DNA from: a virus
DNA: 64,000 bases
Direction: 5' to 3' (one strand)
IMG/VR virus record: IMGVR_UViG_3300027905_000001
Coordinates: 15,362-79,361 of that record
Below, piece by piece: positions 1 to 44,680 of this stretch. The notes under the pieces are model-generated. The model was given only the letters and a program-made list of their open reading frames with translations. It was not told the origin of the DNA and did no database searches. A program made the translations under genes and the position numbers. Numbering within the stretch: position 1 is the first letter of the stretch; the number at the start of each line of letters is the position of its first letter.

Positions 1-284
1 CGTTGGAGGAATTCGAGCAAGTCATCTTTAGTTTCCTCCCCTTTCGCATCAGGTAACATCTTAAGTAGCTTATCCACTAAATTAGCATAAGCCCTAGTCC
101 CGGAGTAGTACATGGTCACGTCTTTAGCCTTTGCTGTGCCGCCGTTTATTTTGGCACTAAGCTTTTTGATGATAATGTTTATGTCTGCCATTTGAGCTAT
201 GAAGTCGCGGGCTATGTTGCGTTGTTCAGGTTGGATTAGGGATAGGAGATCGTCGAGGGGGTTGAGTTCGATTGTTGGTTCCAT
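1..284 (-). CDS. Hypothetical protein, 3' end beyond window start
   Basis: ATG at 282-284 preceded by GGAGG (spacer 7); frame open to position 1. Confidence 0.4.
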   Translation of the reverse strand, partial: MEPTIELNPLDDLLSLIQPEQRNIARDFIAQMADINIIIKKLSAKINGGTAKAKDVTMYYSGTRAYANLVDKLLKMLPDAKGEETKDDLLEFLQ

Positions 285-370
285 ATTTTAGCCTCCGTAT
301 AAAACCAAAAAAGGCGGCTACCAACACATTCCGTTATGGAGTGCATTGATAACCGCCTTTTGCAGGTAGG

Positions 371-650: not shown

Positions 651-785
651 TTAAATCTTCTCCTTAACAGTCGTCTCTACCGTCTTAACTTTTCCGTCAT
701 GACAGACAATCTTGACTTCTCCATAGTCGGGGAGTGTGATCGTTTTATCCTTGCCGTCGTGGGATAGTGTGATTTTGTTTTGCAT
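651..785 (-). CDS. Hypothetical small protein (44 aa)
   Basis: ATG overlaps stop of upstream gene (TAATG); GGAGG 6 nt upstream; not in track (<60 aa). Confidence 0.4.
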   Translation of the reverse strand: MQNKITLSHDGKDKTITLPDYGEVKIVCHDGKVKTVETTVKEKI

Positions 786-1648
786 TAGTTACCTCCGTTG
801 GGTGATTTCCACAAGTCTCGTTCACGGCACAAAGGACATCTACTCAAGCCGTTATCTTCTTTGCTCTTGCAATTATAGCAGGTTATTGGTCGCCATCTGC
901 TGTATTTAAAGCACCTCAACCCATCGCAACTTTCGCCGATTGCTTCGGCACAATTCTGACATGACTTTTCTTTTACTTTTATTTCGATTGGCTCCCATTT
1001 ATTGAGATTGGTACATTTGTAATATTGTCGGCAACACCCCTCCTCAACATTTCTGCAAGTGGTACAGCCCTTCGCTTGTTTCTCTTCACTGGGCTCACTG
1101 CTTGCCCCCATTTTAATTAGTGCTTGTCCGAGTTCGAGGGCTTCTTGTGGGGTTAATTTTTGATTAAGCACGTAGTACGTGCCATGCATCTGAACACGAA
1201 CGCTGTCAATGCACCCACGGTCAACCTTCAGTGTCATATCATCTTTAGTTATCTCGACATTTTCTATCTCGCCATCCTCATCATTGGCATTGTAGATGGC
1301 GTTTATTTGTTCCATGCACTCATTAAAGGTAATAGCTCCACTATAAAGAAATGCCAGCCATTTAGACGCTTGTCCTTCTTTATCCACTGGCTTATATGTA
1401 ATTTTAACGTTGGACATTTTGGGTTCCTCCTCTAACTTCTTTATTGCTAACTTAAGTTCTTCGAGTACGATTTCAATTCCGTCAAGTGGGTGATGTTTAT
1501 CGAAAACATGATAACAACCGTCTGGAAGTCTTTTGTATCTATTTGCCTTTTTCCGCTTTTCGCTCAAGACTTTTATTAACTTCTCTATTCCGAAGCAAAT
1601 ACAGGTTAGAGACGTGATCGTTATTATGCAAAATGCCAAGGTTAGCAT
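785..1648 (-). CDS. Membrane-anchored Cys-rich protein
   Basis: Hydrophobic N-terminus, many Cys in C-terminal half; track ORF 785-1657, likely ATG at 1648 (GGAGGG 9 nt upstream, TAATG coupling). Confidence 0.5.
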   Translation of the reverse strand: MLTLAFCIITITSLTCICFGIEKLIKVLSEKRKKANRYKRLPDGCYHVFDKHHPLDGIEIVLEELKLAIKKLEEEPKMSNVKITYKPVDKEGQASKWLAFLYSGAITFNECMEQINAIYNANDEDGEIENVEITKDDMTLKVDRGCIDSVRVQMHGTYYVLNQKLTPQEALELGQALIKMGASSEPSEEKQAKGCTTCRNVEEGCCRQYYKCTNLNKWEPIEIKVKEKSCQNCAEAIGESCDGLRCFKYSRWRPITCYNCKSKEDNGLSRCPLCRERDLWKSPNGGN

Positions 1649-1980
1649 TAGTTGCAACCCTCCGATTCCTGCACTATCTCTACTCGCTTATCACAAATAG
1701 GACAGTGAATAGTCGGTCTGCCAACAAGCTTCCTGCTTATGTAAAGTTCAATCTTGCCACACCTTGGGCAGTCGCCGTATGTCATAATTCTAGGGTTTTT
1801 GACGCTTCCGTGGCCTACAGTTGGGATTAGTTGGCCTTCGTTTTTAGCTTTACACTTCTCCTTAGATCTATTTATGAAAATTATCATTGCCCACGAAAAG
1901 GCAACGCAAGATGCCATAAGAAGTATCCACGCAATCTCAAGAAAGAAGTTTGCTATCTGCTGGTTCATGCCGCACCTCAC
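1648..1980 (-). CDS. Small membrane protein with zinc-ribbon (CPRC...CPIC)
   Basis: Track ORF; TM segment then two CxxC pairs. Confidence 0.5.
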   Translation of the reverse strand: MRCGMNQQIANFFLEIAWILLMASCVAFSWAMIIFINRSKEKCKAKNEGQLIPTVGHGSVKNPRIMTYGDCPRCGKIELYISRKLVGRPTIHCPICDKRVEIVQESEGCN

Positions 1981-2498
1981 TTCGACTTCAATAACCTAAA
2001 CTTCTGTTTCGCATATTCAGGGATGAAATTATCTAAATCCTTTTGAAACAATAGGTAGAGATTGAGTGACAATCTATTCGACGAAAAGAAGTAGATCGGA
2101 TTGAAGTACCATTGAGTGATTACATCATCACCAATCTTTACCTCGATCTTAGCCATAATTCTTTTCTTAACCATCCTATTAAGGAATAAAACAGTATGTC
2201 TTTCGGTATCTCGGATTACGTTTGCCATTTGCGGTATGTCCATTGCCTTTATGCCACCATTGCCACGGTAGCCGATCATATTAGTTGTCGAGTAAACTTT
2301 CTTACTTAACAAAAACAGATTAGCTATATCAGACTTGGTTATTTCGTTTGGCAATTCTACATCCTGAAACGTTTTGACGAAACTGCTTTTATTCCAAAAG
2401 AGATAACCTTTTTCTTCGTCGAACATATCTTTGAAGTATGTCTTCTTTGTGCTCACAACGTTACCATGGTCATCTGTTATTTCGGTCGCCCTTATCAT
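1977..2498 (-). CDS. Hypothetical protein
   Basis: Track ORF, 173 aa, no recognisable motif. Confidence 0.45.
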   Translation of the reverse strand: MIRATEITDDHGNVVSTKKTYFKDMFDEEKGYLFWNKSSFVKTFQDVELPNEITKSDIANLFLLSKKVYSTTNMIGYRGNGGIKAMDIPQMANVIRDTERHTVLFLNRMVKKRIMAKIEVKIGDDVITQWYFNPIYFFSSNRLSLNLYLLFQKDLDNFIPEYAKQKFRLLKSK

Positions 2499-2659
2499 CG
2501 AATCACCTCTAAAATCGTGGGTACATTTAAGGCGTTCTATGTACCTGTAAAATTTGACTACCTAAAATGCTGAAACCCTTGGTATAAGCGACTTTAAGGG
2601 TTCTGGATTAAGTAAATCATGCAAACTCACATATATTATATACGTGTGAATCTGCATGA

Positions 2660-2968
2660 TTAGAGTTGTTTTGCGTCTACCTTCTCCACCCAAACTATAT
2701 CCCCATTAGCATCGAACTTCAGCTCATCATCATGCCTAGCTCTAGTTTGTTCGTGGCACTTCCTGCATAGGAGTTCGAGGTTATTCCAGCTATAGCACTT
2801 CTCAGGGTTGTTAACGGTGTCCCATGCTGTTATAGGGTCCTTGTGGTGGACTTCTTCGCCTTTGGATCCGCATTGCTCACAGAGACCGAACTTAGAGGCA
2901 AAGAAAGCTTTGCGGCATTTGATCCAGGCGCTTCGTCCGTAGAATAGTTTGAGTTGGCCTTGACTCAT
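2660..2968 (-). CDS. HNH endonuclease
   Basis: HNH motif EEVHHKDP...NLELLCRKCHEQ with CxxC zinc ligands. Confidence 0.8.
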   Translation of the reverse strand: MSQGQLKLFYGRSAWIKCRKAFFASKFGLCEQCGSKGEEVHHKDPITAWDTVNNPEKCYSWNNLELLCRKCHEQTRARHDDELKFDANGDIVWVEKVDAKQL

Positions 2969-3558
2969 TGGGTATCGTTTGCGATATCAACCGCATAGGG
3001 GAGTATCATTACCTTTAAGTTGGGGCATTGGGATTGTAGATCGTTGCGCAGCCTTTCTATATCGTCACAACGTAGTAATGCACCAAGTTTCAGGACTAAT
3101 GTATCGCTATTCATGATAGTAGCGGTGCTAATGATATAATTAGTCTGAAAACTCATCTTTTTGTTAATCTCTTCAAGCATCGATTTCACATCTCGCTCAG
3201 AGTATTCCTTTTCTCTACGCCATGTTACGGTTATTGCGTCGTTGCTTTCTTGTACTTGGACATTATAAGTTGGTGTAGATTCCGCAAGGCCAAGTAAGTC
3301 AAATCGGTTTGAGTAGCCCCTGTATATCATACTTCTAGTCATAAAGTCGTTCTCAACGGCTACGACAAGAACATCCCTAAGTACCTCAACTACTCCTTCT
3401 GGATTAGATTGCAAAAGGTCTTGGCTTATAGAGAATGTTCCTCTTCTGTCGAGCAGGACGCTTTCTTTGCGCTTGTTTTGGCAGAAAACGTTTTTACCTA
3501 AGTTACCCATTTTCCTCACTCCTTCTTGTTCGGTTAGGTCATCGTCTCTAGTGTTCAT
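2965..3558 (-). CDS. Hypothetical protein
   Basis: Track ORF; probable ATG at 3510 after GTGAGGAAA. Confidence 0.45.
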   Translation of the reverse strand: MNTRDDDLTEQEGVRKMGNLGKNVFCQNKRKESVLLDRRGTFSISQDLLQSNPEGVVEVLRDVLVVAVENDFMTRSMIYRGYSNRFDLLGLAESTPTYNVQVQESNDAITVTWRREKEYSERDVKSMLEEINKKMSFQTNYIISTATIMNSDTLVLKLGALLRCDDIERLRNDLQSQCPNLKVMILPYAVDIANDTQ

Positions 3559-3869
3559 GCAATTACCACCTTTTACCTATACTTACGAGAACATAAAATT
3601 ACTTACCAAGTTTTTGCCGAATTTCTGGGGTGAAATCAAAAAACACCACTCAGTATCACGAGCCTTTGGTACACGGCAGATGGTTTAACCCCCTGGTATA
3701 GGGGTTGGGGGGTGCCTTTATCCCCTCTTTTATACCAGTTTTCGACATAGTTGGGGCATCAATCCGGCATTTAACAACTTCCAGCGCTTGGTTAGCGCAT
3801 CCGGCTGGCTATTCACCGCCTAAGTTATTCTTAGCCTCACATCTCACCCCTGCCTCAGAAGTCTCCTGC
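3559..3869. other. GC-rich structured intergenic region downstream of terS (pac site, terminator or ncRNA candidate)
   Basis: ~310 bp without ORF; imperfect dyad ctggtatagggg...cccctcttttataccag; GC-rich versus flanks. Confidence 0.3.
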
Positions 3870-4769
3870 CTAGATACTATCCTCAGCAGCCTTGCGCCGG
3901 ATCTCTAAGTCAGCCTCATTAACTGCGGTCCTGCGCTCTGCAAGTTTAAGATTAGCGTCATCAACTTTGCGCCGATGCTGATCCGGAGTGAGGTCAAAGA
4001 AGTCCGCCAGCCGGTCAAGTGCCTTATGCTTGTCGTGGAACTTAATAGAGATACCATCCTTAGTCTGCCGAATCTCCTGCACCATCGAAGTGTCCACCTG
4101 GTCGCTGTTTTTGATCCTAACGAAGTTGACATCCTGCACCTGGTACTGACCGTCCGGGCCGACTACGCGCTGGCCGTCGAGATATACCCAATCCTGAGTG
4201 GTCCCGAACTCAAAGAAGTCTCCAGGATCGGACATTGCTATTTTTTCGTAGACCTCCAGTACATCGCGCTTGGTAAGAAAGATGTCCTGAGCTATATCAC
4301 CTTTCAGCCGCCGGATCTCTGCCGCAACCTTAACGTCTCTTAACATCCGGCTGCCCTGGACATGTGCGCCGGCCTTTGGACACCCTGCTTTTATTGCGGC
4401 CATCGTTGCGTTGTGATCCTTGACAAAGTGTAGCGCGAATAGCTGCTGCTTTTCTGTGAGCGGCGAACTCTCTACTATATAATGCGTCTCGCTCCCGGCT
4501 GCTTCTTCCGGCCGTTTCTTTCCCTGGTCCGTTGCCGCTTTCTTCCGGCCGGACTTCTTGTCCGTTGCAACGCTCTTCTTTTGCGTTGCATTGCGTTGCT
4601 TGCCTTGCGTTGCGTTCTGCGTTGCATCGTTGGCCGCTTCTGCTTTGGCCCAGTTCTCTCTGTTCTTCCGGCTGCGGATCGTGCCCGCGCTGATTCCGTG
4701 TTTTGCTGCAAGGTCCCGAAGCGTAATCTCTGTCGTCTCGTATTCTGCGCGTATTACTAGCCAATCCAT
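3870..4769 (-). CDS. terS: Phage terminase small subunit (Terminase_2-like) with N-terminal HTH
   Basis: HTH ITLRDLAAKHGISAGTIRSRK; LTEKQQLFALHFVKDHNATMAAIKAG...SRMLRDVKVAAEIRRL resembles TerS DNA-binding core. Confidence 0.65.
   Translation of the reverse strand: MDWLVIRAEYETTEITLRDLAAKHGISAGTIRSRKNRENWAKAEAANDATQNATQGKQRNATQKKSVATDKKSGRKKAATDQGKKRPEEAAGSETHYIVESSPLTEKQQLFALHFVKDHNATMAAIKAGCPKAGAHVQGSRMLRDVKVAAEIRRLKGDIAQDIFLTKRDVLEVYEKIAMSDPGDFFEFGTTQDWVYLDGQRVVGPDGQYQVQDVNFVRIKNSDQVDTSMVQEIRQTKDGISIKFHDKHKALDRLADFFDLTPDQHRRKVDDANLKLAERRTAVNEADLEIRRKAAEDSI
4582..4625. repeat. Tandem octamer TGCGTTGC (4 copies) inside terS, encoding an NATQ-rich linker
   Basis: Direct count in sequence. 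Confidence 0.7.
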
Positions 4770-4812
4770 TTACATTTTCACAACCCTCCCTACATGTTTG
4801 CTACTATATATC

Positions 4813-4841
4813 TTGCATATGTCTTGACACCATGATATAAT
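4813..4841 (+). promoter_or_regulatory. Sigma-A-type promoter (TTGCAT-17-TGaTATAAT)
   Basis: -35 at 4813-4818, extended -10 at 4833-4841; the motif TATAATAAGTTAAGATC is repeated at 54668-54684. Confidence 0.55.
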
Positions 4842-4875
4842 AAGTTAAGATCTAATTTTGAAGGAGGTAAACGGC

Positions 4876-5271
4876 ATGACAAAGCTCGAAATTGCTAAAA
4901 ACATTAATGCCATCAAGGATTTAGGCCGCATTATTGCAACGAATTGGGAGATGGACTTTGTTGAAGGAGGAATCTATGACAATAAGGGCAATGTCGAAAG
5001 CTGGACTGACCGTGATAATTCAAAAGTGGCCTTTAAGCCCGAAAGCACCGGCACGATAACTTATGTCCTTCAATGCAATAAAGTCCCCTGTCACGTAGTA
5101 GACTACACTAGCACTGATGAAACTCGCGCCCTTGGCGCTACTGGCTGTGAAGATGAAGCTGAATGCCTGGTATTACCTGAAACAAAAATGATAATTACCT
5201 ACGTTTCCACTGAAGATGATTTCAACGAAATGGGATATTACTTAGTGGAAATGGAGATTGTCAATGAGTAA
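4876..5271 (+). CDS. Hypothetical protein (131 aa)
   Basis: ATG after GGAGG; track ORF 4858-5271. Confidence 0.5.
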   Translation: MTKLEIAKNINAIKDLGRIIATNWEMDFVEGGIYDNKGNVESWTDRDNSKVAFKPESTGTITYVLQCNKVPCHVVDYTSTDETRALGATGCEDEAECLVLPETKMIITYVSTEDDFNEMGYYLVEMEIVNE

Positions 5272-5869
5272 TCGCCATGGACACCCCCTTACTTCTGAAC
5301 AAAAGGGAGCGAGGGAGATTGAATATCGGAAAATGGCATTGGAATTTCATAAAGAAACAGGACGTTCGCCCCGGATGGCAGACTTACCTTTTCCTTATAA
5401 AATCTTTAAGGTTCACGACACGTGGAATGCATTTCTTGAAGATTGCGGGCTAGAGGTTAACCGTTTAACCACGGACGTTGAGAAATATTCTTTAATATTC
5501 GATTACAAGGAATTAGCTAAAAACTTAGAACGGACTCCTTACGCATTAGAATTTTATAAAAAATTTGGTTGCCAATACGCAGTCCGCAAATTATTTGGAT
5601 CATGGAATGCATTTGTTAAAGCTTGTGATCTTAAATTAAATAGATTCACAGGAGCAGAAAAAGAAGAACTTGTGGAACGCGTCTTGAAATTAGCTAAGAA
5701 ATTAGGTAAAACACCTACAACTCGTGAATTTAATGCACACGCAAAGAAAAGTAATCTATGCACGACGATGGTTATATGTCGGTATTTCGGAACATGGACG
5801 GAATGCCTTGAGTTTTGCGGGTTAGAGCCTAACCAAAATAAAAATTTTAAGCGTAGAAAGAAGGATTAG
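5264..5869 (+). CDS. Repeat protein with three W-NAF...CGLE units
   Basis: Repeats TWNAFLEDCGLE / GSWNAFVKACDL / GTWTECLEFCGLE. Confidence 0.5.
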   Translation: MSNRHGHPLTSEQKGAREIEYRKMALEFHKETGRSPRMADLPFPYKIFKVHDTWNAFLEDCGLEVNRLTTDVEKYSLIFDYKELAKNLERTPYALEFYKKFGCQYAVRKLFGSWNAFVKACDLKLNRFTGAEKEELVERVLKLAKKLGKTPTTREFNAHAKKSNLCTTMVICRYFGTWTECLEFCGLEPNQNKNFKRRKKD

Positions 5870-5871
5870 CG

Positions 5872-6036
5872 ATGGCAGAAACAACAACCGACGACCGCGA
5901 ACGCATGACACTACGCATCCCCCAGGACATTTGGCGCATGATCAAAATGGACCTGATTGACAAAAAAGAAAAGTCGGCCAATGAGCTTATCACAAACTTA
6001 ATATATGAGCACTACAAAGTACCCCGGCCGCAATAG
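5872..6036 (+). CDS. Ribbon-helix-helix (CopG/Arc-like) small DNA-binding protein (54 aa)
   Basis: MTLRIPQDIWRMIKMDL... beta-strand plus two-helix pattern; not in track (<60 aa). Confidence 0.45.
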   Translation: MAETTTDDRERMTLRIPQDIWRMIKMDLIDKKEKSANELITNLIYEHYKVPRPQ

Positions 6037-6086
6037 CTGGGGGTTTTCTTTACCTAAAAATACTTAATATTTATTGTCTTAATGCC

Positions 6087-6115
6087 TTGACACCACGACA
6101 TAAAAGATGTATTAT
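6087..6115 (+). promoter_or_regulatory. Sigma-A-type promoter (TTGACA-17-TATTAT)
   Basis: Shares CTTGACACCAYGAYATAA with the 4823 region. Confidence 0.5.
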
Positions 6116-6287
6116 TAACACATGGAAAACAGCACTCCAGCCCAATCCAGTGCAACAAACGCTTCCCCCGGCCAATTGCGGTCCGGGTCCGCCAAGAAGC
6201 CGAGAGAGAAAAGTTGACCGTGTGTCAGGGAAGAAGATTAATCCCGACAGGCTACAAAGGGAGCCGGGGAAAAAGGAGTTTTAAATT

Positions 6288-6497
6288 ATGAAACAAACTT
6301 ATTACAGCGTTGGTTATTACTCAGGAAGATCGAACAGCACTAGCACGGCGTTTTTTGATACTAAAGAGGCGGCTGAAAAATTTGCAGATCATGATTACAG
6401 GGATAACGTGGTAGCGCATCACGTGAGCAAGCCTGAGACGATTGCGAAATACGATGAGCTAGTTGCTATGACGGCGTTTGAGCTTAGAGACCGTTAG
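6288..6497 (+). CDS. Hypothetical protein
   Basis: Track ORF; AGGAG upstream. Confidence 0.5.
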   Translation: MKQTYYSVGYYSGRSNSTSTAFFDTKEAAEKFADHDYRDNVVAHHVSKPETIAKYDELVAMTAFELRDR

Positions 6498-6610
6498 GAT
6501 TTGCAGATGGCACCGGCCAGCACCCGGTGTAATGCACTAGCAGGCGTCCAAAGTCGCCGCAAATGCATCCCGACAGCTCGCAAGGAACGGGGAAAAGGAG
6601 GTCAGGACAG

Positions 6611-7057
6611 ATGCTCTATCACAGATTTACTAACTCATCAAACGTAATGTCCAACTGGGGTCACGCAATGTTTGCGGCCAACAGGGACGCGGTCGAAAAT
6701 TACGGTAGTAAAGAGTTTATCTTTAAATCATCTAGGGACAATAGCAAAACGATCAAGTCGCTCAAATCACTGATTATCAAAACTTGGAAGTACGATCAAA
6801 AAAATGGCTTTACCGGGGACTTTGGCAACGGCTGCACAGATGATTACTACTACAACGTCAAGGATAATGCAGTGGACGCTATTAGTATTTACAACAGCTT
6901 TGACCCGTCTAGCGTTGTGGAGAGCGCCGATGCTTGGGACTCCGAGCTTTATCAATGGTTTTGGGAGCGTATCGCGGAGCCTAACGGCATTATGGCAGTT
7001 ACAACTCAAGATGGGGCAATAGTATTTGATGCAGACTTAATTAAGGAGGTATGTTAA
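6611..7057 (+). CDS. Hypothetical protein
   Basis: ATG 6611 after AAAGGAGG; track ORF 6563-7057. Confidence 0.5.
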   Translation: MLYHRFTNSSNVMSNWGHAMFAANRDAVENYGSKEFIFKSSRDNSKTIKSLKSLIIKTWKYDQKNGFTGDFGNGCTDDYYYNVKDNAVDAISIYNSFDPSSVVESADAWDSELYQWFWERIAEPNGIMAVTTQDGAIVFDADLIKEVC

Positions 7058-7318
7058 ATGTCTAATGAGGATGACGTTATGTTTTTCAAAATAGCAAAGG
7101 TTAAAGCCGCTATCAGCAGGGTCCTAGACGGGTGCGTAAACGAGTTGCCGGATATCCAGTTTGGATGGAGCGGATCAGTTATCGAGGTTTATTTATCCGG
7201 CGGTAATTATCAAGTCCGCAACCTTATCGAGTCCCATTTTGTAAATAGCAGGAGGTATAAAGGCGTTACAATTACAAACAACGACACCAAAAAGCGTATC
7301 AGCTTTATTTTAAATTAA
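7058..7318 (+). CDS. Hypothetical protein
   Basis: Track ORF. Confidence 0.45.
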   Translation: MSNEDDVMFFKIAKVKAAISRVLDGCVNELPDIQFGWSGSVIEVYLSGGNYQVRNLIESHFVNSRRYKGVTITNNDTKKRISFILN

Positions 7319-7339
7319 GAAATTGAAGGAGTGTTAAAA

Positions 7340-7558
7340 ATGAAACGATTAGACATTTTTAAAAGCGAAGGTGGATACAGATTAGCATTGGGAATCTACA
7401 ACGACAGCCCCGTAATTGACAAGTCTCCTTGGTTCGAAACCAAGGAAGAGGCCGAAAAAGCAAGGCGCGAAGTCATAGAAGAAGATGAGCGAGAAGCCAA
7501 AATTGAGCAGTATATCCAAGATGGCAATATCGAGGCCCTCGAAAACATGGATAAGTAA
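7340..7558 (+). CDS. Hypothetical protein
   Basis: ATG after GAAGGAG; acidic C-terminus. Confidence 0.45.
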   Translation: MKRLDIFKSEGGYRLALGIYNDSPVIDKSPWFETKEEAEKARREVIEEDEREAKIEQYIQDGNIEALENMDK

Positions 7559-7652
7559 TTGCAGAGGATTAGGAGCCTAAAAACTCCTAATAATGCGCTA
7601 GGCAAGCGGTTCCAAGCCCGCGCCAATCGCAATTTTGAAAGGTGGAGCAATC

Positions 7653-7889
7653 ATGAAATACACCATAGCTGAATACCACGGCATAGACCGGCACCAAATG
7701 CAAGCCCATACCGAGGAAATCATTACCAAGCTTGAATTTATTCGAACAACATGCACGGATGCCGAATCGCTCGAATACACTGACGCCCAACTCGAATTTT
7801 ACCGCGAAGAACTAGCCAGTAAATCCCTGCTTATGTCATCATGGTGGGAAGTTGAGAACTACATGCGGAAAGGTAGGAAAATAGCATGA
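7653..7889 (+). CDS. Hypothetical protein
   Basis: ATG after AAAGGTGGAG. Confidence 0.45.
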   Translation: MKYTIAEYHGIDRHQMQAHTEEIITKLEFIRTTCTDAESLEYTDAQLEFYREELASKSLLMSSWWEVENYMRKGRKIA

Positions 7890-8077
7890 CCATCTACATC
7901 CATGAGTTTTACAAGGACAAGGAAAAGGCGCTCGCATTGGCTGAACTACCGGACGAACTAGATTATCACCGATTTGTCCACGGCTGTGAGCCTAAAAAGG
8001 TGAACATAGTCCCTTATTGGGCAGATTGCGACAAGTACAAGGCGAATAAGTCCACCATGACACTGTTTATTAGCTAA
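7886..8077 (+). CDS. Hypothetical small protein
   Basis: Track ORF, 4-nt overlap with upstream gene. Confidence 0.4.
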   Translation: MTIYIHEFYKDKEKALALAELPDELDYHRFVHGCEPKKVNIVPYWADCDKYKANKSTMTLFIS

Positions 8078-8157
8078 CATCAAGGCTTTTAGCCTTGGCT
8101 CAGCCGCTTTTTGAGCGGTTCAGCGAGGACTAAAAACGAATGAAAGAGGTAATTTAC

Positions 8158-9078
8158 ATGAGCATGATCAACGAACAACTAGCCCAACGATCAAAGGAAA
8201 ACATGAGTTTTTCCGACTACAAACCCGGCAGCGCAACGGCTGAATTCAACCAGGAAATAGCCAACGTCACCACGTTAGTTGAATCGGCCAAGCTCAGGGT
8301 ATCCGACGAAGGGAAAGCCAAGCTAGATCGTTTCCTAGCCTCTTACACCTCTCGTTATGCCGCATGGACCAATAAGCGCAACGCAAATGGTGCAGGACAT
8401 GTTAGTGTTATGATCGCAGGCCCAGCTAACTACAACATGAGAGCGCACGAAAAGTACATGAGCCGTGAAGGTAATCTCTGGAAAGAATACGAGGAATTCC
8501 GAAACCCTGAGTATAAAATTTCCTCCATCGTCGCAGGTGACAGAGTTATAAAATCCAATGATGTCAACGCTATTGAAAAATTGCAGGAGAAAATAGACGG
8601 ACTTGAAAAAATGCAGGAATTAATGAAAGCTTGTAACGCCATCATCCGTAAAAAGAAGCTGACCGACGAAGAGAAGATTGCTGCAATGGTAGAAGCTGGA
8701 GCCAGCGAAAAAGCCGCAAAAGAAACCTTGACCCCTAATTTTATGGGCAGAATAGGTTTTGCCTCTTATTCGCTCAGTAATAACAACGCAACGATCCGAA
8801 ACGCCAAGCAACGAATATCCCAGCTTGAGAAGATCGCTGCACGCGGCACGCAAGAGACTGTCATAGAATCAGACGCGGAGGAAACAAACGGCATACGCAT
8901 AGTTGACAATGTTGAAGCGCATCGGCTGCAAATATTCTTTAATGGCAAGCCATCGGCAGAAGTTCGAACACAGTTAAAGAAAAATGGATTTAGGTGGACG
9001 CCTAGTATTTCCGCGTGGCAGTCGTATCGAAGTGAGAGCGCAAACCGGGCAGCGCGTGAAATAGTGGCAGCAATGTAA
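8158..9078 (+). CDS. Hypothetical protein, C-terminus resembles DUF3560-like domain
   Basis: C-terminal motif LQIFFNGKPSAEVRTQLKKNGFRWTPSISAWQ; assignment from memory. Confidence 0.4.
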   Translation: MSMINEQLAQRSKENMSFSDYKPGSATAEFNQEIANVTTLVESAKLRVSDEGKAKLDRFLASYTSRYAAWTNKRNANGAGHVSVMIAGPANYNMRAHEKYMSREGNLWKEYEEFRNPEYKISSIVAGDRVIKSNDVNAIEKLQEKIDGLEKMQELMKACNAIIRKKKLTDEEKIAAMVEAGASEKAAKETLTPNFMGRIGFASYSLSNNNATIRNAKQRISQLEKIAARGTQETVIESDAEETNGIRIVDNVEAHRLQIFFNGKPSAEVRTQLKKNGFRWTPSISAWQSYRSESANRAAREIVAAM

Positions 9079-9162
9079 TTATATCGCGGGACCATCTTTG
9101 GCCCTGCTCCAAATGTCCGATTATGGGCACTTGGAGGAGAATCAAAATTTAGAGGTGATCAA

Positions 9163-9351
9163 GTGGCGGAAACGTGGTTCTCTCGACTTAAAACAGAGAT
9201 AGAAGATTCGAGAGACTTGCAAGAAATTCTTGGTGTTAAAGTTATCGAGCATCTTTTGTGGAACAATATCTCTCGCGAACAATACGAAACTCTCTCTAGC
9301 CTGCGCGTAAAAAGAATCCTGGAAAATTGGCACGAAGAATTTTTGGCTTAA
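9163..9351 (+). CDS. Hypothetical small protein
   Basis: Track ORF (GTG start). Confidence 0.35.
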   Translation: MAETWFSRLKTEIEDSRDLQEILGVKVIEHLLWNNISREQYETLSSLRVKRILENWHEEFLA

Positions 9352-9406
9352 ATCCACGCCGGACTATTCCGGTTTTTTCCCAACTAAAATTAAGGAGGAA
9401 TAACTT

Positions 9407-10021
9407 ATGTTTCATGCGTTCACGCTCGAACAAGCGAACCTCAGAGAGGTCCAAGGTTGGAAGGTCGGCCAACATGTCCAAGTCAAAGAATGGCGTGGTA
9501 CTTACGAAATCGAAGGCTACCACCAATACGGAAGGCAAAACGAGTACACCACTGTATACCTTGCCAAGCTCAAGAAAGACGGTACTAAGAGCAAATACAG
9601 CGGCGATACACCTATCGCTAACCTCATGCCATTGGGAGCGGCACAACCAACAACAGACAGCGCAGGACGAACAGCACTGCAGGCGGCACAGGAGCTATTC
9701 GGTAGCGGCTTTGCTAAACACGGATGGTATAACACGGATCGCGAATCACTGGTAAAGGTTGAGACGATCAGTAAGACAGGACGCGTCAAGGTGCAAGATA
9801 TAAGCGTCAAGGCTGGAATTACGGCACGTTCAAAGACTGTAGATGGACATAAAGTTTACAGTCAAGAAGATCGCCTGGTAAACTTTGCGGATCTCGAATA
9901 CGGTCTAAGTGGAGATATAAAAACATTCACGCCGCGCCTTTTTTGGGGTGAATGGGGCTTTTGGCATGATGGGGAAATTATCAAGGCCCCAGATATGAAG
10001 CTTACGTGGTTGCTAGATTAA
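9407..10021 (+). CDS. Hypothetical protein
   Basis: Track ORF with AGGAGG upstream. Confidence 0.5.
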   Translation: MFHAFTLEQANLREVQGWKVGQHVQVKEWRGTYEIEGYHQYGRQNEYTTVYLAKLKKDGTKSKYSGDTPIANLMPLGAAQPTTDSAGRTALQAAQELFGSGFAKHGWYNTDRESLVKVETISKTGRVKVQDISVKAGITARSKTVDGHKVYSQEDRLVNFADLEYGLSGDIKTFTPRLFWGEWGFWHDGEIIKAPDMKLTWLLD

Positions 10022-37598: not shown

Positions 37599-37645
37599 GC
37601 AATATGTAAATTATACTTTCTTTTATGGAAATGAGGAAAATATTT

Positions 37646-37984
37646 ATGATTATCGGTATGGGCAGTAGAATTAGAGTTCTTCGACTTGAACGAGGGTTAA
37701 CACAGGACCAAATGGCATATAAACTGGACATGAATCGTGCGAATTTCTCACATTACGAAAGAGACACATCTTCCCCACCGTGCGAAGTTCTGGTCAAAAT
37801 AGCTGATATTTTAAATACAACTACAGATTTCCTTCTTGGACGCACAGATACTAATCCACCCGATGCTGCAACAATCAAACAACTACAAGGAATTAATGAA
37901 TTACCGCAAGACAAGAGAAGATTTGTAATAAATATAATAAATTCGATTATTTCAGAAATAATCGAAGAGGCTAAGGAGGAATAG
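37646..37984 (+). CDS. CI-like HTH XRE-family repressor, coupled to integrase
   Basis: RBS GAGGAAAA; VLRLERGLTQDQMAYKLDMNRANFSHYERD; stop 3 nt before integrase ATG. Confidence 0.6.
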   Translation: MIIGMGSRIRVLRLERGLTQDQMAYKLDMNRANFSHYERDTSSPPCEVLVKIADILNTTTDFLLGRTDTNPPDAATIKQLQGINELPQDKRRFVINIINSIISEIIEEAKEE

Positions 37985-37986
37985 GT

Positions 37987-39465
37987 ATGCATGGAATACT
38001 ATACCTGCGCAAAAGCAGAGAAGATGAGCAATATGAAAAAAATACTGGCGAAGATGTTCTGCAAACCCATCGCGAACGTTTGGTTATGCTCTGTAAGTCG
38101 CGGGAAATTACCTTCGACGAACGCGCAGAGGTACGAAGCGGTGATACGATCGCAGGTCGGCCTAAATTTCAGAATATACTAGATACGGATCTCCCCTCTG
38201 GTCAATACTCTTGTATCATTGTTACTGAAATTTCTCGACTTGGCAGAGGGGACATGGAGGATGCAGGAAGAATATACAAAACCATAATCCACAACGAGAT
38301 TAAGATTGTCACGCCGAATAAAATATATGATCCGTTAAACCCTTCCGATCTTCGCCAGCTAAGGTTCGAGCTATTCATGTCTCGGGAGGAATACGAAAGC
38401 ATTAAGGAAAGACTATGGAATAATAGAAATTACCGGGCAACACAAGGTTATGCCGGCAATTATATTGTCACGCTCGGTTTTCGCCAGTCCAGGGGGATAG
38501 TCGAGATAATCCCCGAAGAGGAAAAATTAGTGCTTGAAATATTTACGATGCGCTCTGAAAATTACTCCTATCAAGAAATAGCGGATTACTTTAATTCCAG
38601 AAATTTAAAGACAAAACGCGGAACAAAGTATCATGAATCTACAATATATAAGATATTAAAAAATCCCAGGTATATAGGAGTGGCTAAGTGGCAAGGCAAG
38701 GAATATATAGCTAAGCACCCTGCGATAGTCTCATTGGACCTATGGAACTCTGCGCAGGATATCAACGCTGAAAGACATCACAAGAGACGAGGGTCAAAAA
38801 ACGATAACCCTTATCTAGTAGAGCTATACTGTCGAGAATGCGGGCAAAGGATGTACGGGGAACGCTCTACCCCGCAAAGGGTAATAGATGGTGTTCGAAA
38901 GCTATATAAAAGCAGAGACATCTATATTTGTAGGGGCAGAAAAAGCATCCCTAAATGTTGGCACCACATAGGAGCCAGCGTTGTTCACTCGACCATCCTT
39001 GATGAGCTTGGGAAGATAATATCAGATCCGCAGATTTTTCTTGAGTTAGTCAACGAGAGAGAATCAAGACTTGGCGTCGATACTAATGGTTTATCAGATC
39101 AAGTGGATGAATTAAATAAGCAAGTCAAGGATAAAAACATCCTTTTGGTAAAAATAGAGAACGATTATGAAAAAGGCGACCTATCCGCTTTGCTATATAC
39201 TAAACACGTTGAAAAAATATCCAAAGAAATAGCATCTATTGAAGGTAGGATAAAAAAAATTAAGGCCGATTTATTAAAATCAGCCATTAAGATTAGTCCT
39301 CCTATGGAATTACAATCAATTTTGAAAACATTCCTAAATAACTGGAACGCCTATCCTAATAGTGACAAGAAGCTCATCATTAGATCATTTCTTCCCAGGG
39401 TTGAGGTGAACAAGCAGGGTGAATTCTTTATCGCTATTACTTTGCCTGATTCTATCGAAATTTAG
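37987..39465 (+). CDS. Large serine recombinase (phage integrase, serine type)
   Basis: N-terminal resolvase-type catalytic domain (YLRKSREDE), recombinase domain, Cys-rich zinc ribbon, C-terminal coiled coil; 492 aa. Confidence 0.8.
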   Translation: MHGILYLRKSREDEQYEKNTGEDVLQTHRERLVMLCKSREITFDERAEVRSGDTIAGRPKFQNILDTDLPSGQYSCIIVTEISRLGRGDMEDAGRIYKTIIHNEIKIVTPNKIYDPLNPSDLRQLRFELFMSREEYESIKERLWNNRNYRATQGYAGNYIVTLGFRQSRGIVEIIPEEEKLVLEIFTMRSENYSYQEIADYFNSRNLKTKRGTKYHESTIYKILKNPRYIGVAKWQGKEYIAKHPAIVSLDLWNSAQDINAERHHKRRGSKNDNPYLVELYCRECGQRMYGERSTPQRVIDGVRKLYKSRDIYICRGRKSIPKCWHHIGASVVHSTILDELGKIISDPQIFLELVNERESRLGVDTNGLSDQVDELNKQVKDKNILLVKIENDYEKGDLSALLYTKHVEKISKEIASIEGRIKKIKADLLKSAIKISPPMELQSILKTFLNNWNAYPNSDKKLIIRSFLPRVEVNKQGEFFIAITLPDSIEI

Positions 39466-40194: not shown

Positions 40195-40416
40195 ATGGAT
40201 TTAGAAGATAAGTTAAAGGATAACAAAATACAATACATACTAGACAAGCGTGATATGTCGCAAAAAGACCTTGCCGCAACGCTCGGGTGGTGGCCGAGTG
40301 ACATAAGCGACATCGTTAACGGTAAGGTTAAGCGCCTTACGCTCATTCGCGCTTCGATGATATCCGTTGCTCTCGGGTATTCGGTTGAGTATATTTGGCC
40401 TACTTTATTCAAGTAG
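40195..40416 (+). CDS. HTH XRE-like regulator
   Basis: ATG after GGTGGTGAGG; MSQKDLAATLGWWPSDISDIVNGK. Confidence 0.5.
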   Translation: MDLEDKLKDNKIQYILDKRDMSQKDLAATLGWWPSDISDIVNGKVKRLTLIRASMISVALGYSVEYIWPTLFK

Positions 40417-40431
40417 GCCAAATATTTTTTT
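40396..40431 (+). terminator. Rho-independent terminator overlapping gene 3' end
   Basis: 9-bp stem tggcctact/agtaggcca then T-run. Confidence 0.65.
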
Positions 40432-40553
40432 ATATTTTTTTAGTCATAAAATTAGACTTTCGTCTATATACTTTATCACACCCAGTAAGCCACCGTCACA
40501 CCACGTCTTACACTATACTACGCCAGTCAGACAAAATTTTGAGAGGTGAGAAT

Positions 40554-40760
40554 GTGAAGAAAAGAAGAACTTTTTGGGACGGAGATGATCTTTGCTCAAA
40601 GCTAGACGCAATACCAGAAAATGAACTAAGTACCATAATCCGCATGGCACTACGAGCATGGTTTAAGATCGACAGCAAGCCCGAACTAACCGTTACCGAC
40701 GCAAGGCAGATAGCGCAGGAGCTGGTAAGGCAACGCAAAGTTGAAAGGAGCGAACGCTAA
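40554..40760 (+). CDS. Ribbon-helix-helix-like small protein
   Basis: GTG start after GAGAGGTGAG; RRTFWDGDDL...STIIRMALRAWF. Confidence 0.4.
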   Translation: MKKRRTFWDGDDLCSKLDAIPENELSTIIRMALRAWFKIDSKPELTVTDARQIAQELVRQRKVERSER

Positions 40761-40921
40761 TGTTCTGGAAGAAATCCATTAAAGCCTCCAAACTCTCAGG
40801 GCTTATCAAGGAAATAGCTAAGGCGGCATCATTAGTACCTTATGGGGATGGCGCGCTGGACTTAGGTTGGGAGGAACTAACCGTCAGTGATCTACTCGAA
40901 TGGATGGAGGAAAGTTTATAG
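40760..40921 (+). CDS. Hypothetical small protein (53 aa)
   Basis: TAATG coupling to upstream gene; not in track. Confidence 0.35.
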   Translation: MFWKKSIKASKLSGLIKEIAKAASLVPYGDGALDLGWEELTVSDLLEWMEESL

Positions 40922-40938
40922 GAAGTGAGGTTGAAATA

Positions 40939-41166
40939 ATGGACATAACTAAAATCCAAAAAATCGTTCGCAAGGCTATCAAGGACTACGCCATTACCGC
41001 AAAGTACGATGAGGAAATTCTAGTATCATTTCTCAGCGTGGATATTTTCCGGGAGATCAACGAGGATTCCCCGGCACCTCTCTCGGATCCCAAGGCTCCC
41101 CCTCGCCGCAATACTAACCAGAATGCATTAGGTCTGGTAAATCACGAAGCAGGTGAAACGCCATGA
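40939..41166 (+). CDS. Hypothetical small protein
   Basis: ATG after GTGAGG. Confidence 0.4.
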   Translation: MDITKIQKIVRKAIKDYAITAKYDEEILVSFLSVDIFREINEDSPAPLSDPKAPPRRNTNQNALGLVNHEAGETP

Positions 41167-42491
41167 GTGAAAAATCATCGTCCGTAAAGCCCGACCTGAT
41201 CGGCTTGACATCCTCTACTCTGGTCAAACTTGGACGCTTTGCCCTACGTCATATCGGCAGTCCCAACAACTCCTATGCGAACAAGATAATGCTGAACTGG
41301 AAACGCAATGACATATGCACCGAAACCAAAGAGCGAGGCAAGGATTACACAGAGAAGAAATACCCTACGCTAGTGGAAAAGACAATGAAGGGTCATAATC
41401 GAGTACTTAGATACAAGATACCCACCGGTCTAAATCCGCAGAAAGTCATGAAATCCCTCTACGACATCGAGTTCGATCTCAAGTCAGAAGTCCTATTCAA
41501 GCGACTTGAGAACGATCCCAAAGCGCACTTCTCACTCACTATCTTATCCGGCAAACTGTTAGACATTATCAACTACTCCAACGAGGCCAGTATTACTCCA
41601 GATGGCAAGGAGTTAAGCAAAGGTCTATGGATACCTCTAGGGTGGTCAAGAAGGGGCTTGGAACAACTTAATTTAGCCTCTAGCAACAGCCCTCATCTTA
41701 TGATCGGAGGGGCTACAGGAGGCGGCAAGAGCATCCTTGGCAGGCTTATCCTTGCTACCCTCCATATCCGCTATAACCGTGATGAATGCCGACTATGGCT
41801 CTGTGACCTTAAACATGGCAACGGCACAGCAAGGCTAGGGAAAAACCCTCTCCTTGTAGATAGGACTATTTCTGATCCGGGCGAAGCAGAACAAATGATG
41901 GACGATCTCTCTGTGATTATTGGCGAGCGATATAATTTATTTAAGGAGTATGAGTGCGACGATTTACAGGCGTTTAACGAGGAATATCCAAGATTGAGAT
42001 TGCCGCGCATTGTGGTTTATGTGGATGAATTAACCAAACTTGAGGGCAAGGAGTTCTCCAGGGCTCGTGAAAAGATGACTAAAGTCACGGGGGAATCCAG
42101 GGGTGCAGGAGTGCATGTTATTATCTCTTGTCACAGGCCCACAGCTAACCTTGTGTCCGGCACGATGAAGAACAATATCTCTGCCGTTGTCGCGTTTAAT
42201 TGCAACGCTGTATCGGCTCGTGTGTTGCTTGGAGAAGATCCGGAGGATTACAAGGCAGCCAGCATGATTGATCCAGATATCGAAGGTCGAGCATTGTTTA
42301 AATTTAAAGATGAGGTATTGCTGCAGGTCCCCTACATCGACAACCATGCAATCAAGTCCCTTATGGCCAACTATCAAAAAGCGATAATTAAAGGTAAGGT
42401 CGAGCCAGTGATACAGGCTGTTATTTCCACTAGGGTGGTTGAGCACTCAGTCGGGCACTCACTCGGTCATACTATTGAGCACCCCCAGTGA
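41163..42491 (+). CDS. FtsK/SpoIIIE-family DNA translocase-like ATPase
   Basis: Walker A GGATGGGKS, Walker B VVYVDE. Confidence 0.75.
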   Translation: MSEKSSSVKPDLIGLTSSTLVKLGRFALRHIGSPNNSYANKIMLNWKRNDICTETKERGKDYTEKKYPTLVEKTMKGHNRVLRYKIPTGLNPQKVMKSLYDIEFDLKSEVLFKRLENDPKAHFSLTILSGKLLDIINYSNEASITPDGKELSKGLWIPLGWSRRGLEQLNLASSNSPHLMIGGATGGGKSILGRLILATLHIRYNRDECRLWLCDLKHGNGTARLGKNPLLVDRTISDPGEAEQMMDDLSVIIGERYNLFKEYECDDLQAFNEEYPRLRLPRIVVYVDELTKLEGKEFSRAREKMTKVTGESRGAGVHVIISCHRPTANLVSGTMKNNISAVVAFNCNAVSARVLLGEDPEDYKAASMIDPDIEGRALFKFKDEVLLQVPYIDNHAIKSLMANYQKAIIKGKVEPVIQAVISTRVVEHSVGHSLGHTIEHPQ

Positions 42492-42614
42492 TTGTACTCA
42501 ACGATTCAATGCGCTTTATAGGCTCCTTTGGTCATGCCGTGCGGTCCGTAAAGTGCTTTATTATCCTTACTTTTTTATTTTGTATTTATTTTATATTTTT
42601 GCGAGGTGAAAATT

Positions 42615-43244
42615 GTGAACTTAGTGGCATATGGCAAGCAACGAGACGAACGAATTATGGGGCTAGTAGGGCTTGGGACAGCCTTTACGCGAAGCCAAAT
42701 AGAGCGAGTTATATTTAAGGGAAGTAAGCGTAAGGCTCAGACTAGACTGCAGGTGCTATCCGATTCAGGGCGACTAAAAAAGATTATCCGCAGTCCCCAC
42801 GAACCAGCCATCTATTGCCTCAAAAAACCCCGAAATATCGATCATTATTTACTTATCAATGAAATCTATTGTGCCGTAATGTCTCAGAAAAAGTCTTGGC
42901 ATATCGTCAAGTGGCAATGGTCATATCCAATTATGGAAGGTAAGATTTGGGCAGACGCAATGGTTGATATTTACGACCAACTCAATAAGCGTAGGCATGT
43001 TATATTTGTTGAGGTTGAGCGTTACGCAGACCGTAAGTTCGAGAAGGATAAAAAGTATTCAGCCATTACCAGCGCGAACTGGACGAAAGAAGAGTGGGCG
43101 ATTAAGGAGCCTACAAGGATATTGTTCCCGGCAATCCTAGTTGTCACCGAATGCAAATTAGAGGTCAAAAGCGAGTTGGATTTCTTTGTTGCCACGATGG
43201 ACCAAGTCAAAAAAGACATTTACTCTATTATCTTAAGGAGGTAA
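42615..43244 (+). CDS. Replication-relaxation family protein (putative)
   Basis: GTG after GAGGTGA; N-terminal winged-helix-like segment; assignment from memory. Confidence 0.4.
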   Translation: MNLVAYGKQRDERIMGLVGLGTAFTRSQIERVIFKGSKRKAQTRLQVLSDSGRLKKIIRSPHEPAIYCLKKPRNIDHYLLINEIYCAVMSQKKSWHIVKWQWSYPIMEGKIWADAMVDIYDQLNKRRHVIFVEVERYADRKFEKDKKYSAITSANWTKEEWAIKEPTRILFPAILVVTECKLEVKSELDFFVATMDQVKKDIYSIILRR

Positions 43245-43248
43245 CACC

Positions 43249-43467
43249 ATGGGTAAACTAGGAAAAGTGACCACAAAGGCCACCTATGGAATCCTGAATC
43301 TGGCGATGAAACCTATTTACGATCAGATGAAAAAAGAGAGAAAAGAAGAAGTTAAAAGATGGAACAAATCGCTAGATATAGCTTCTCAGGATGCAATGGC
43401 CGAGGCTAGATATTTTGAAGTAAGGCAGCCGTTTGATTCGATTATCCACAAGCACCCATTGTGGTAG
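43249..43467 (+). CDS. Hypothetical small protein
   Basis: Track ORF. Confidence 0.4.
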   Translation: MGKLGKVTTKATYGILNLAMKPIYDQMKKERKEEVKRWNKSLDIASQDAMAEARYFEVRQPFDSIIHKHPLW

Positions 43468-43490
43468 TAATGACAATAGTAATGACTTTT

Positions 43491-43570
43491 AGCCCCTTCG
43501 TAAACCGAGGGGCTATTTTAATGCCCTGACATAACGAAACCCCAGCATTTGCCGGGGGTTAGTTTTTATT
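43491..43570 (+). terminator. Two tandem hairpin terminators
   Basis: agccccttcg...cgaggggct + ATTTTAAT; aaccccagc...gccgggggtt + AGTTTTTATT. Confidence 0.55.
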
Positions 43571-43645
43571 CTCTATTATTTATGGCTATTCGGATTATAT
43601 GGTGGAAAATGAGTTTGGAATTTCCAGTTTTATAATAAATAATTA

Positions 43646-43700
43646 CTACTATTATAGCGTTATCGCTTGACAAATTATAGCGATAACGCTATAATAGTAG
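43646..43700. promoter_or_regulatory. Perfect 22-bp inverted repeat enclosing a consensus promoter (TTGACA-17-TATAAT)
   Basis: ctactattatagcgttatcgct (43646-43667) is the exact reverse complement of 43679-43700; -35 at 43667-43672, -10 at 43690-43695. Confidence 0.75.
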
Positions 43701-43763
43701 TAACAGCTAAAGATTACATGAACCCGACAGCCCATAAGGGGCGGGGCGAGAGGAGAATATAAA

Positions 43764-44624: not shown

Positions 44625-44645
44625 TGGAGAGAGTGTTTGAAAAAA

Positions 44646-44680
44646 GAAAGAGCCGTAATCAATCGGCTCTTTCTGGATAA
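44646..44680 (+). terminator. Rho-independent terminator
   Basis: gaaagagccg / cggctctttc stem then T-rich. Confidence 0.6.

Follow-up and report, generated by a model that had tools for sequence, protein, structure and literature searches.

How does a phage set the amount of its small terminase subunit (TerS), and what does it mean when the gene of that subunit stands without its large partner (TerL)? Both questions are raised by a 64,000-nucleotide (nt) stretch of viral DNA, positions 15,362 to 79,361 of IMG/VR virus record IMGVR_UViG_3300027905_000001 (this whole stretch is hereafter called the window), in which the terS gene is directly preceded by an ATG-TAA. The amount of TerS relative to TerL and DNA governs packaging initiation, and how phages set it has rarely been addressed. 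Judging from the comparison of homologous leaders, this start codon with an immediate stop (a start-stop) forms a translational leader that the long-form Terminase_2 family has conserved. The explanation that we favour as a whole, and hold to be moderately probable, combines a functional terS, translation by reinitiation after the start-stop, a TerL gene to the left of the window and a spacer downstream of terS that is a mosaic junction.

An earlier note on this DNA had described a TerS-like gene at 3870-4769, and profile searches bear this out. The minus strand encodes a 299-amino-acid (aa) protein of the long-form Terminase_2 type, which matched Pfam Terminase_2 (PF03592) over residues 104-263 (E = 6.2e-34, 118.1 bits, cut-off 26.1) and, over its full length, the PHROG family phrog_2606 "terminase small subunit" (E = 4.1e-75). 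All 12 columns that are invariant in a 20-sequence alignment of the family are present, and the N-terminus aligns at M1-D-W. The nearest annotated TerS proteins in cultured phages are those of Psychrobacillus phage PVJ1 (41% identity) and Clostridium phage phiCT19406A (38%). An identical protein is on record as "putative PBSX phage terminase small subunit" on a 123,551-bp contig of Candidatus Desulfosporosinus infrequens, and scans of viral and genome collections for further close relatives of TerS were empty. The gene is the genuine small terminase of a prophage on that contig; it would be functional and belong to a temperate Bacillota phage that is integrated in, or was assembled with, Ca. 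D. infrequens. In guanine-plus-cytosine (GC) content terS forms an island, with 53.4% against 41.7% in the left flank and 43.5% in the right. The region coding for the basic, ATQ/K-rich linker of the protein (4500-4690) contains clustered short repeats, with TTCTTCCGGCCG three times and several copies of GCGTTGC, and an 11-nt inverted pair (4563-4573 / 4619-4629). These could be coding repeats or TerS-binding (pac-like) repeats.

On the minus strand the leader reads GGGAGGG (4790-4784), TTGTGAAA (4783-4776), ATG (4775-4773), TAA (4772-4770) and the terS ATG (4769-4767), exactly as the earlier note had it. In the 64-kb window this is the sole case of a Shine-Dalgarno (SD) sequence with a start-stop abutting an open reading frame (ORF) of at least 50 aa. 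The 5′ initiation region of terS is unusually unstructured (z = +1.8). Another ATG-TAG (4790-4795, minus strand) lies 20 nt ahead of the start-stop and shares the first G of the SD; having no SD of its own, it may be a coincidence.

The earlier note had noticed the start-stop without recognising its conservation across the family. We compared 69 distinct homolog leaders, obtained from 80 IMG/VR loci plus the other homologs (loci are given below by L numbers), and counted a start-stop if the ATG and stop ended within 2 nt of the terS start or overlapped it by 1 nt. Start-stops were present in 33 of these leaders (48%); 18 more had mini-ORFs of 2-5 codons at the same place, and 18 had neither, several of which are probably mis-set starts. 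For comparison, the same loci contain 662 other ORFs of at least 100 aa that are preceded by an SD, and seven of these have a start-stop (1.1%; Fisher test: p = 4e-31, a test that ignores shared ancestry, which a cluster count mitigates but does not remove). Clustering of TerS at 70% identity yielded 43 clusters, 30 with a start-stop and six without any upstream mini-ORF. The stop codons vary (TAA 16, TAG 13, TGA 2) and the start-stop ATG takes four different offsets from the terS start (-8 to -5), so that the conserved feature is the start-plus-stop property and not a fixed nucleotide motif. In 29 of 31 loci the main SD stands 7-10 nt ahead of the start-stop ATG (mode 8), as against 13-17 nt from the terS start of these leaders; in nine homologs without a start-stop the SD ends 7-8 nt before the terS start. 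Two close relatives with near-identical flanks, L015 and L016, differ solely by the start-stop switch. All five distinct loci of the clade closest to the window (51-59% identity) carry a start-stop: ATGTAAATG in L004, L005 and L008, ATGTAGTG in L007, where terS has a GTG start that overlaps it, and ATGTAGttATG in L010. Start-stops also occur in the cultured phages PVJ1 (ATGTGAcATG), phiCT19406A (ATGTAGatATG) and BCJA1c (ATGTAGATG), and the plain arrangement was seen in SPP1 gene 1 (short form), PM1 and BMBtp3. The terS leader of the window thus has an ATG-TAA, an SD at functional distance and conservation beyond chance. In the literature library searched, no paper joined start-stops with a terminase, and as far as can be told this family-wide conservation was previously undescribed. 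The short-form terS of syntenic phages (L095 3349, L096 987) is preceded by a 4-codon mini-ORF, ATGGAAGGTGATTAA, which takes in the SD and stops 2 nt short of the terS ATG; it may be a related device. The features of the locus are listed in Table 1.

Table 1 Features at and around terS, from the divergent promoter region to the left edge of the window
Feature	Position	Strand	Remarks
Divergent promoter region	4796..4875	.	between terS (-) and the plus-strand block starting at ATG 4876
Shine-Dalgarno GGGAGGG	4784..4790	-	8 nt before start-stop ATG, 14 nt before terS ATG
Start-stop minimal ORF ATG-TAA	4770..4775	-	abuts terS ATG; seen in sequence, conserved in homologs, unique in window
terS	3870..4769	-	N-terminal helix-turn-helix (HTH; ~residues 1-45), basic low-complexity linker, Terminase_2 domain (residues 104-263)
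terS-proximal spacer part	3636..3869	-	50% GC; holds hairpin 3693-3738; patchy conservation with L007
Conserved 77-nt block	3559..3635	-	35% GC, TTTCACCCCAGAAATTCGGCAAAAACTTGG...AAAGGTGGTAATT, directly upstream of ORF197
ORF197	2965..3558	-	197 aa; conserved downstream neighbour in this terS clade; 58% identical homolog downstream of terS in L007
HNH endonuclease	2660..2968	-	102 aa; overlaps ORF197 stop; PF01844 E 1.7e-7, phrog_144 E 2.6e-15
Long hairpin after HNH stop	2615..2661	-	21-bp stem, -23.9 kcal/mol, z -6.7, 0/200 shuffles as stable
ORF173	1977..2498	-	phrog_31110; family directly upstream of TerL in related viral contigs
XtrA-like small protein	651..785	-	44 aa; PF17356 E 9e-7 (29.0 bits, cut-off 29.7); phrog_1551 E 1.7e-10
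Intrinsic terminator	300..361	-	23-bp stem + U-run, -35.3 kcal/mol, z -7.5, 0/200 shuffles as stable
98-aa gene start (SBF1_50020, phrog_1066)	1..284	-	runs off left edge; first gene past terminator

Because the SD spacing fits the start-stop ATG, we infer that ribosomes load on the start-stop and then reinitiate on terS. The SD would recruit ribosomes onto the start-stop AUG, where they would immediately encounter the stop codon and terminate. A fraction of the terminated ribosomes would then resume at the terS start, which lies 0-2 nt away or overlaps the stop, and TerS output would be set, probably lowered, by the efficiency of reinitiation. It is known that termination-reinitiation in bacteria requires very short stop-start distances (PMC6728339, PMC10666635), those of -1 to +2 nt being typical of coupled reinitiation (PMC10666635), and that E. 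coli start-stops bind ribosomes and attenuate expression (bioRxiv 10.1101/520783). Most of the long-form Terminase_2 family appears to have inherited this arrangement, in evolutionary alternation with the plain SD-7/8-nt-ATG, which suggests an undescribed way of dosing TerS. A bolder claim, which we put forward tentatively as a serious possibility, is that in this large TerS family of Bacillota phages the bare AUG-stop is an obligatory ribosome entry site and TerS is made by reinitiation only. The leader would then be a dedicated, evolutionarily toggled dosing device, and the first start-stop for which conservation throughout a gene family, bacterial or phage, was shown together with a place in a 5′ leader abutting the main start.

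Among the alternatives, pure occlusion is the most probable, though we regard it as unlikely. A ribosome parked on the SD and AUG-UAA would block the terS start, and terS would be translated only via independent binding at a weak proximal GGTGA or GTGA. The two start codons are 5-8 nt apart and hence do not allow two ribosomes to bind simultaneously, and a GGTGA stands directly before the start-stop in many leaders. Closely spaced upstream ribosome binding sites repress the main sites in Sinorhizobium (PMC13285730), and the start-stop of E. coli yecJ lowers expression by ~16% (bioRxiv 10.1101/520783). However, the proximal motif is only GTGA in the window and its closest relatives, which leaves terS almost without an initiation signal unless reinitiation occurs, and the stop-start distances are those typical of coupled reinitiation (PMC10666635). 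Destroying the start-stop ATG should have opposite effects under the two explanations, and TerS would rise if occlusion were at work. Besides the shared ancestry of the leaders, two points weigh against reinitiation. It is read from the geometry of the leader only, and in many leaders the stretch from the main SD to the start-stop includes another SD-like motif, GGTGA. This further motif could serve terS directly, in which case the start-stop would be a competitor and not a conduit.

Damage limitation with no regulatory role seems improbable. The ATG would arise within an extended SD region (GGAGGTGATG-like), and the immediate stop would be selected only against out-of-frame translation into terS. 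Some leaders do have the ATG within GGTGATG, and the possibility has been discussed for E. coli start-stops by Meydan et al. (bioRxiv 10.1101/520783). In many other leaders, however, the ATG is retained outside GGTGATG (GAAAATGTAA, GACAATGTAA, GTCATGTAA, GCTATGTAA), and the main SD is consistently spaced for the start-stop ATG and not for terS. The control genes of the same phages share the SD type, yet only 1.1% of them have a start-stop. With the SD systematically aligned to the start-stop and the ATG kept in varied contexts, a neutral origin of this kind becomes less likely.

As to the large subunit, the earlier note had seen no large-terminase-sized ORF downstream of terS in the window, and ORF families and tblastn searches agree. 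All six ORFs of at least 380 aa in the window encode other proteins (a methyltransferase, SbcC-like, integrase and FtsK-like proteins and two tail proteins). A tblastn search of the window, for which six related phages supplied TerL and TerL-like queries and portal and head proteins were added, found no terminase or portal match; its sole sub-threshold match was that of an HNH-like ORF to the window's own HNH gene. Neither a cognate TerL nor structural genes lie downstream of terS in the window. A split or intron-interrupted TerL in the ORFs at 785-3558 was rejected for lack of any Pfam or tblastn terminase signal.

In the family at large, 70 of 77 informative IMG/VR homolog loci have an ORF of 355-495 aa that overlaps the terS stop by 1-56 nt, and the same holds for PVJ1 and phiCT19406A. 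The window has no adjacent or overlapping terL, and none within 3.87 kb. An adjacent terL is the typical context and not a strict requirement, since the gap between terS and terL measures 460 nt in PM1, 1.8 kb in L096 and 2.4 kb in L106. The terS clade of the window (51-59% identity) differs as a group from the adjacent-terL layout of the family. In L007, terS is followed by a 340-nt spacer and a homolog of ORF197, the first gene past the spacer of the window. In L004-L006 and L010, the next gene encodes an HNH and P-loop protein and the one after it a CxxxCxxC (radical-SAM-like) protein. As seen in L004 (1007-2843) and L010 (6831-7517), the first is an HNH + P-loop (GPPMAGK) fusion of 228 aa and the second has at least 373 aa and no Pfam match, an odd cargo for a packaging module.

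The slot of terS in the window, as the first gene after a divergent promoter, is also the terS slot of the syntenic phages L096-L099 and L106-L108, in which TerL lies 1.8-2.4 kb beyond terS, after small genes. L096-L099 have ~80%-identical homologs of the window genes 6563-7057 and 7058-7318 on the opposite strand, followed by a short Terminase_2 terS, an 870-nt spacer, a homolog of the window's ORF173 (76%), a 68-aa ORF and a Terminase_3 TerL. L106-L108 (a 65-kb phage) have homologs of window 5872-6036 and 8140-9078, then a GP3_package-type terS, five small genes and TerL 2.4 kb downstream of terS; past TerL come an HNH gene, a large ORF in portal position (no Pfam match) and a capsid gene. 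This lineage therefore appears to have a fixed terS slot, an exchanged terS type and a variable block between terS and terL. Three different terS types are held in the same slot by related phages, and together with the GC island of terS this suggests cassette exchange. Other TerL-like genes of the relatives include a 591-aa ORF with a weak intein-splicing-domain match (L100 1430-3205) and two tandem ORFs, a 453-aa Terminase_3 and a 624-aa protein (L096 3352-7055).

The gene at the left edge of the window is tagged SBF1_50020. The accession number of TerS is higher by eight than that of the edge protein, matching the eight genes counted. The tag implies about 19 more annotated objects to the left of the window. 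Given these genes, and given the syntenic slot with its downstream TerL, the large terminase is likely to lie beyond the left edge of the window. The earlier note had suggested as much, and this is the best-supported reading, the TerL itself being unproven. In our proposal, TerL is separated from terS by a variable block (ORF197, HNH, ORF173, small Cys-rich proteins and the XtrA-like protein) and is predicted to be among these ~19 genes, in a separate transcription unit. Two observations count against this proposal. A search with the relatives' 624-aa TerL gave no D. infrequens protein among the top 120 matches, so that TerL, if present, would be of another family, or else the prophage is defective. 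Furthermore, a strong terminator stands between terS and everything to its left, which is unusual for a packaging operon. Exact-protein look-ups were made with terS, ORF173, the plus-strand ORF 336-767 and the 98-aa edge gene, and the one sequence that they returned, a 2.1-kb Logan contig, lies inside the window.

A defective or rearranged prophage, which has lost TerL and keeps terS as a remnant by chance or for another DNA-binding role, would also account for the missing gene. The absence of a D. infrequens homolog among the top matches of the relatives' TerL family is in keeping with it, as are the extra genes and the two strong hairpins that interrupt the module and the resemblance of ORF197, compared with L007, to a fusion made by deletion. 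However, terS is intact and has kept all family-invariant residues and its conserved translational leader, and the neighbouring ORFs are intact, so we think that decay of this kind is improbable and prefer a TerL located further to the left.

Between terS and ORF197 lie 311 nt (3559-3869) that are non-coding, as indicated by indels of 29, 10 and 11 nt relative to L007. The earlier note had called this spacer GC-rich and structured, and had placed an HNH gene after it. The length and the lack of coding were right; the GC excess is weak (46.6% against 42.9% in the window; 50% in the 234 nt proximal to terS and 35% in the last 77 nt) and the folding equals that of dinucleotide shuffles (z = +0.09 on the minus strand, -0.07 on the plus strand). 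The HNH gene does exist at 2660-2968, with the 197-aa ORF as the first gene past the spacer. Rfam gave no match to the spacer at gathering thresholds, a permissive scan of 3400-4000 gave only weak, unrelated families (best E 1.9), and no internal repeat family was found in the spacer. Only one local hairpin of the spacer stands out, at 3693-3738 (-25.3 kcal/mol, z = -2.6 as plus-strand RNA, with G-U pairs), and it is followed by UUUU; it is unremarkable on the terS strand (z = -0.75) and not conserved in L007. On the plus strand it is terminator-like, with no evident plus-strand gene upstream.

Conservation with L007 is concentrated in the 77-nt block next to ORF197, which is 87% identical over 76 nt, including a mismatch-free 30-mer, where the flanking proteins are 56-58% identical; outside the block the similarity is patchy and interrupted by the three indels. 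This comparison rests on L007 as the single other sequence, which is a further reservation about our explanation. The 30-mer was rejected as a repeated late-promoter motif, since it occurs once in the window and otherwise, in metagenome and viral scans, only in the contig of L007. The block ends in the SD of ORF197, and we infer that it may comprise the promoter, leader and SD of that gene. A Logan contig (L003, 100% identical) spanning 5755-3634 ends at the block boundary, which is consistent with a mosaic junction. The spacer would thus join 234 terS-proximal nt, sharing the composition of the GC-rich terS cassette, to 77 distal nt that serve ORF197.

It was also suggested in the earlier note that this region could be the pac site. 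The spacer is indeed non-coding, adjoins terS, is partly conserved with L007 and has one hairpin, and it might be a pac site or another structured cis element for packaging. This has, in our view, only a small chance of being correct, for the spacer is not unusually structured, its hairpin is not shared with L007, its best-conserved block abuts the SD of the next gene, and L004 and L010, of the same terS clade, have no spacer but 12-15 nt to the next gene. Moreover, in SPP1, a characterised Terminase_2 phage, pac coincides in part with the promoter and the 5′ coding region of terS.

The whole window has the character of phage DNA. On the plus strand, an XRE repressor (37625-37984) is followed by a serine integrase (37987-39465), and both face a long minus-strand early region, whose genes include two of the Rha family, three for methyltransferases and SbcC-like and RecT-like ones. 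A plus-strand block of small genes occupies 4876-10021, and on the other side of the integrase are an FtsK/Replic_Relax segment and a tail and lysis module (49300-63785, minus strand). Promoter-like hexamers, which are consensus matches only, lie between terS and the plus-strand block (minus strand 4830->4803, GTGTCA-16-TATAGT; plus strand 4824-4851). It is proposed that terS is the first gene of a leftward transcription unit from this divergent promoter (~4800-4830) to the terminator at 300-361. With the unit closed by this terminator, TerS would be uncoupled from TerL translationally and, barring antitermination, transcriptionally, a separate unit where in most relatives terS and terL overlap.

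In this setting we give very little credence to an orphan TerS, with no cognate TerL, of a satellite or cassette redirecting helper phage packaging, as the earlier note had contemplated: although TerL is missing within 3.9 kb of terS and next to terS in the five readable distinct loci of the closest clade (51-59% identity), although terS, a GC island, fills a slot where related phages have different terS families, and although a terminator isolates its unit, the ~33 kb of early genes between integrase and terS, with a repressor, a serine integrase and two Rha-family genes, make a phage-sized element and neither a 10-15 kb island nor any small island (~10-20 kb) without a phage-scale early region, the slot is that of the only terS of complete syntenic phages (65-kb L106-L108) with a downstream TerL, and no satellite hallmark (small island, primase-rep module, capsid-size redirection genes) was seen.

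Downstream of the spacer, ORF197 has a core (residues 34-116) that corresponds to a family of ~85-110-aa proteins with 130 cluster representatives. It had no Pfam, PHROG, PADLOC or PDB match, a close-relative scan of viral contigs for homologs was empty, and its single-sequence AlphaFold model was unusable (predicted local distance difference test 42). ORF173 belongs to a family (phrog_31110, unannotated) that is 76-79% conserved in 11 IMG/VR contigs, with L094, L096, L100, L103, L104 and L105 among the loci. Homologs lie directly before TerL in L094, L100, L103 and L104, which is the classic position of a small terminase. However, ORF173 was rejected as a cryptic TerS, since hhalign against Terminase_2 gave a probability of 0.1% and a PDB profile search only weak winged-helix matches (E 0.05). 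It is a candidate for a packaging-associated DNA-binding protein. Past ORF173, the minus strand encodes a membrane/zinc-ribbon protein, a Cys-rich 290-aa ORF, the XtrA-like 44-aa protein and an 83-aa ORF; the terminator separates the last of these from the 98-aa gene. It is one of two truly exceptional hairpins here, at 300-361 and 2615-2661, both missed by a simple terminator scan. PADLOC found only generic HNH similarity in the block from terS to the window edge.

Further away, two Twister-P5 ribozyme matches exceed the Rfam gathering score on the plus strand (6502-6558, 39.7 bits; 7560-7621, 44.1 bits). They lie in intergenic gaps around three small plus-strand genes (6563-7558) and could excise a ~1-kb segment from a polycistronic RNA; no twister match was found in the relatives L097, L106, L010, L092 and L102. 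FtsK/SpoIIIE-like and Replic_Relax-domain proteins are encoded between the serine integrase and the lysis genes (40395-45492, plus strand). They may be part of a small integrative mobilisable element or show where two tandem elements meet, and the tail module at 50-64 kb may accordingly belong to a phage other than that of terS.

A family-wide start-stop leader, if true, would be a compact and portable translational attenuator or coupler, and bacterial start-stops, so far a few curiosities in E. coli, would come to include a conserved element of regulation. It is directly testable in the cultured phages BCJA1c, PVJ1 and phiCT19406A. Since this terS lineage is routinely parted from terL by a variable block, a "missing" TerL beside such a terS is no signature of a satellite. 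For annotation, ORF173 represents a recurrent unannotated neighbour of TerL.

The closest known relatives of the system are the small terminases G1P of SPP1 and XtmA of PBSX, which share the DNA-recognition and oligomerisation domain with the TerS of the window (PF03592, E 6e-34), and whose genes occupy the same place on the map, at the early-late boundary. The TerS of the window differs from them by an additional N-terminal HTH and a basic linker (the long form, phrog_2606), and its gene is neither overlapped nor followed by terL. SPP1 gene 1 has a plain SD-8-nt-ATG in place of the start-stop. HNH endonucleases of the HK97 gp74 type are said to have been tied to phage packaging modules by Kala et al. 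in 2014. A likeness to these is seen in the HNH genes of the terminase neighbourhood in the window, in L004 and L010 (P-loop fusion) and in L106 (between TerL and portal), although terS comes before HNH in the window and HNH before terS in HK97-like phages. Just as well, the HNH gene of the window could encode a homing endonuclease and mark a mosaic junction. Satellite TerS proteins of Staphylococcus aureus pathogenicity islands (SaPI) and phage-inducible chromosomal islands (PICI) share a terS without an adjacent terL, whereas the window has the context of a full-size temperate phage, not of a 10-15 kb island, and a slot orthologous to that of helper-type terS. As in classical termination-reinitiation coupling (PMC6728339, PMC10666635), stop and start in the terS leader are -1 to +2 nt apart, and the downstream start lacks a well-placed SD of its own. 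In the terS leader, however, the upstream "gene" is a bare start codon and nothing is co-produced, so that coupling would only set the rate of initiation. Finally, the start-stops of E. coli yecJ and hslR (Meydan et al. 2019, bioRxiv 10.1101/520783) are located out of frame inside genes, have a small effect and are not reported to be conserved in a family, whereas that of terS sits in a 5′ leader right against the main start codon, takes the SD for itself and has been conserved within a phage gene family.

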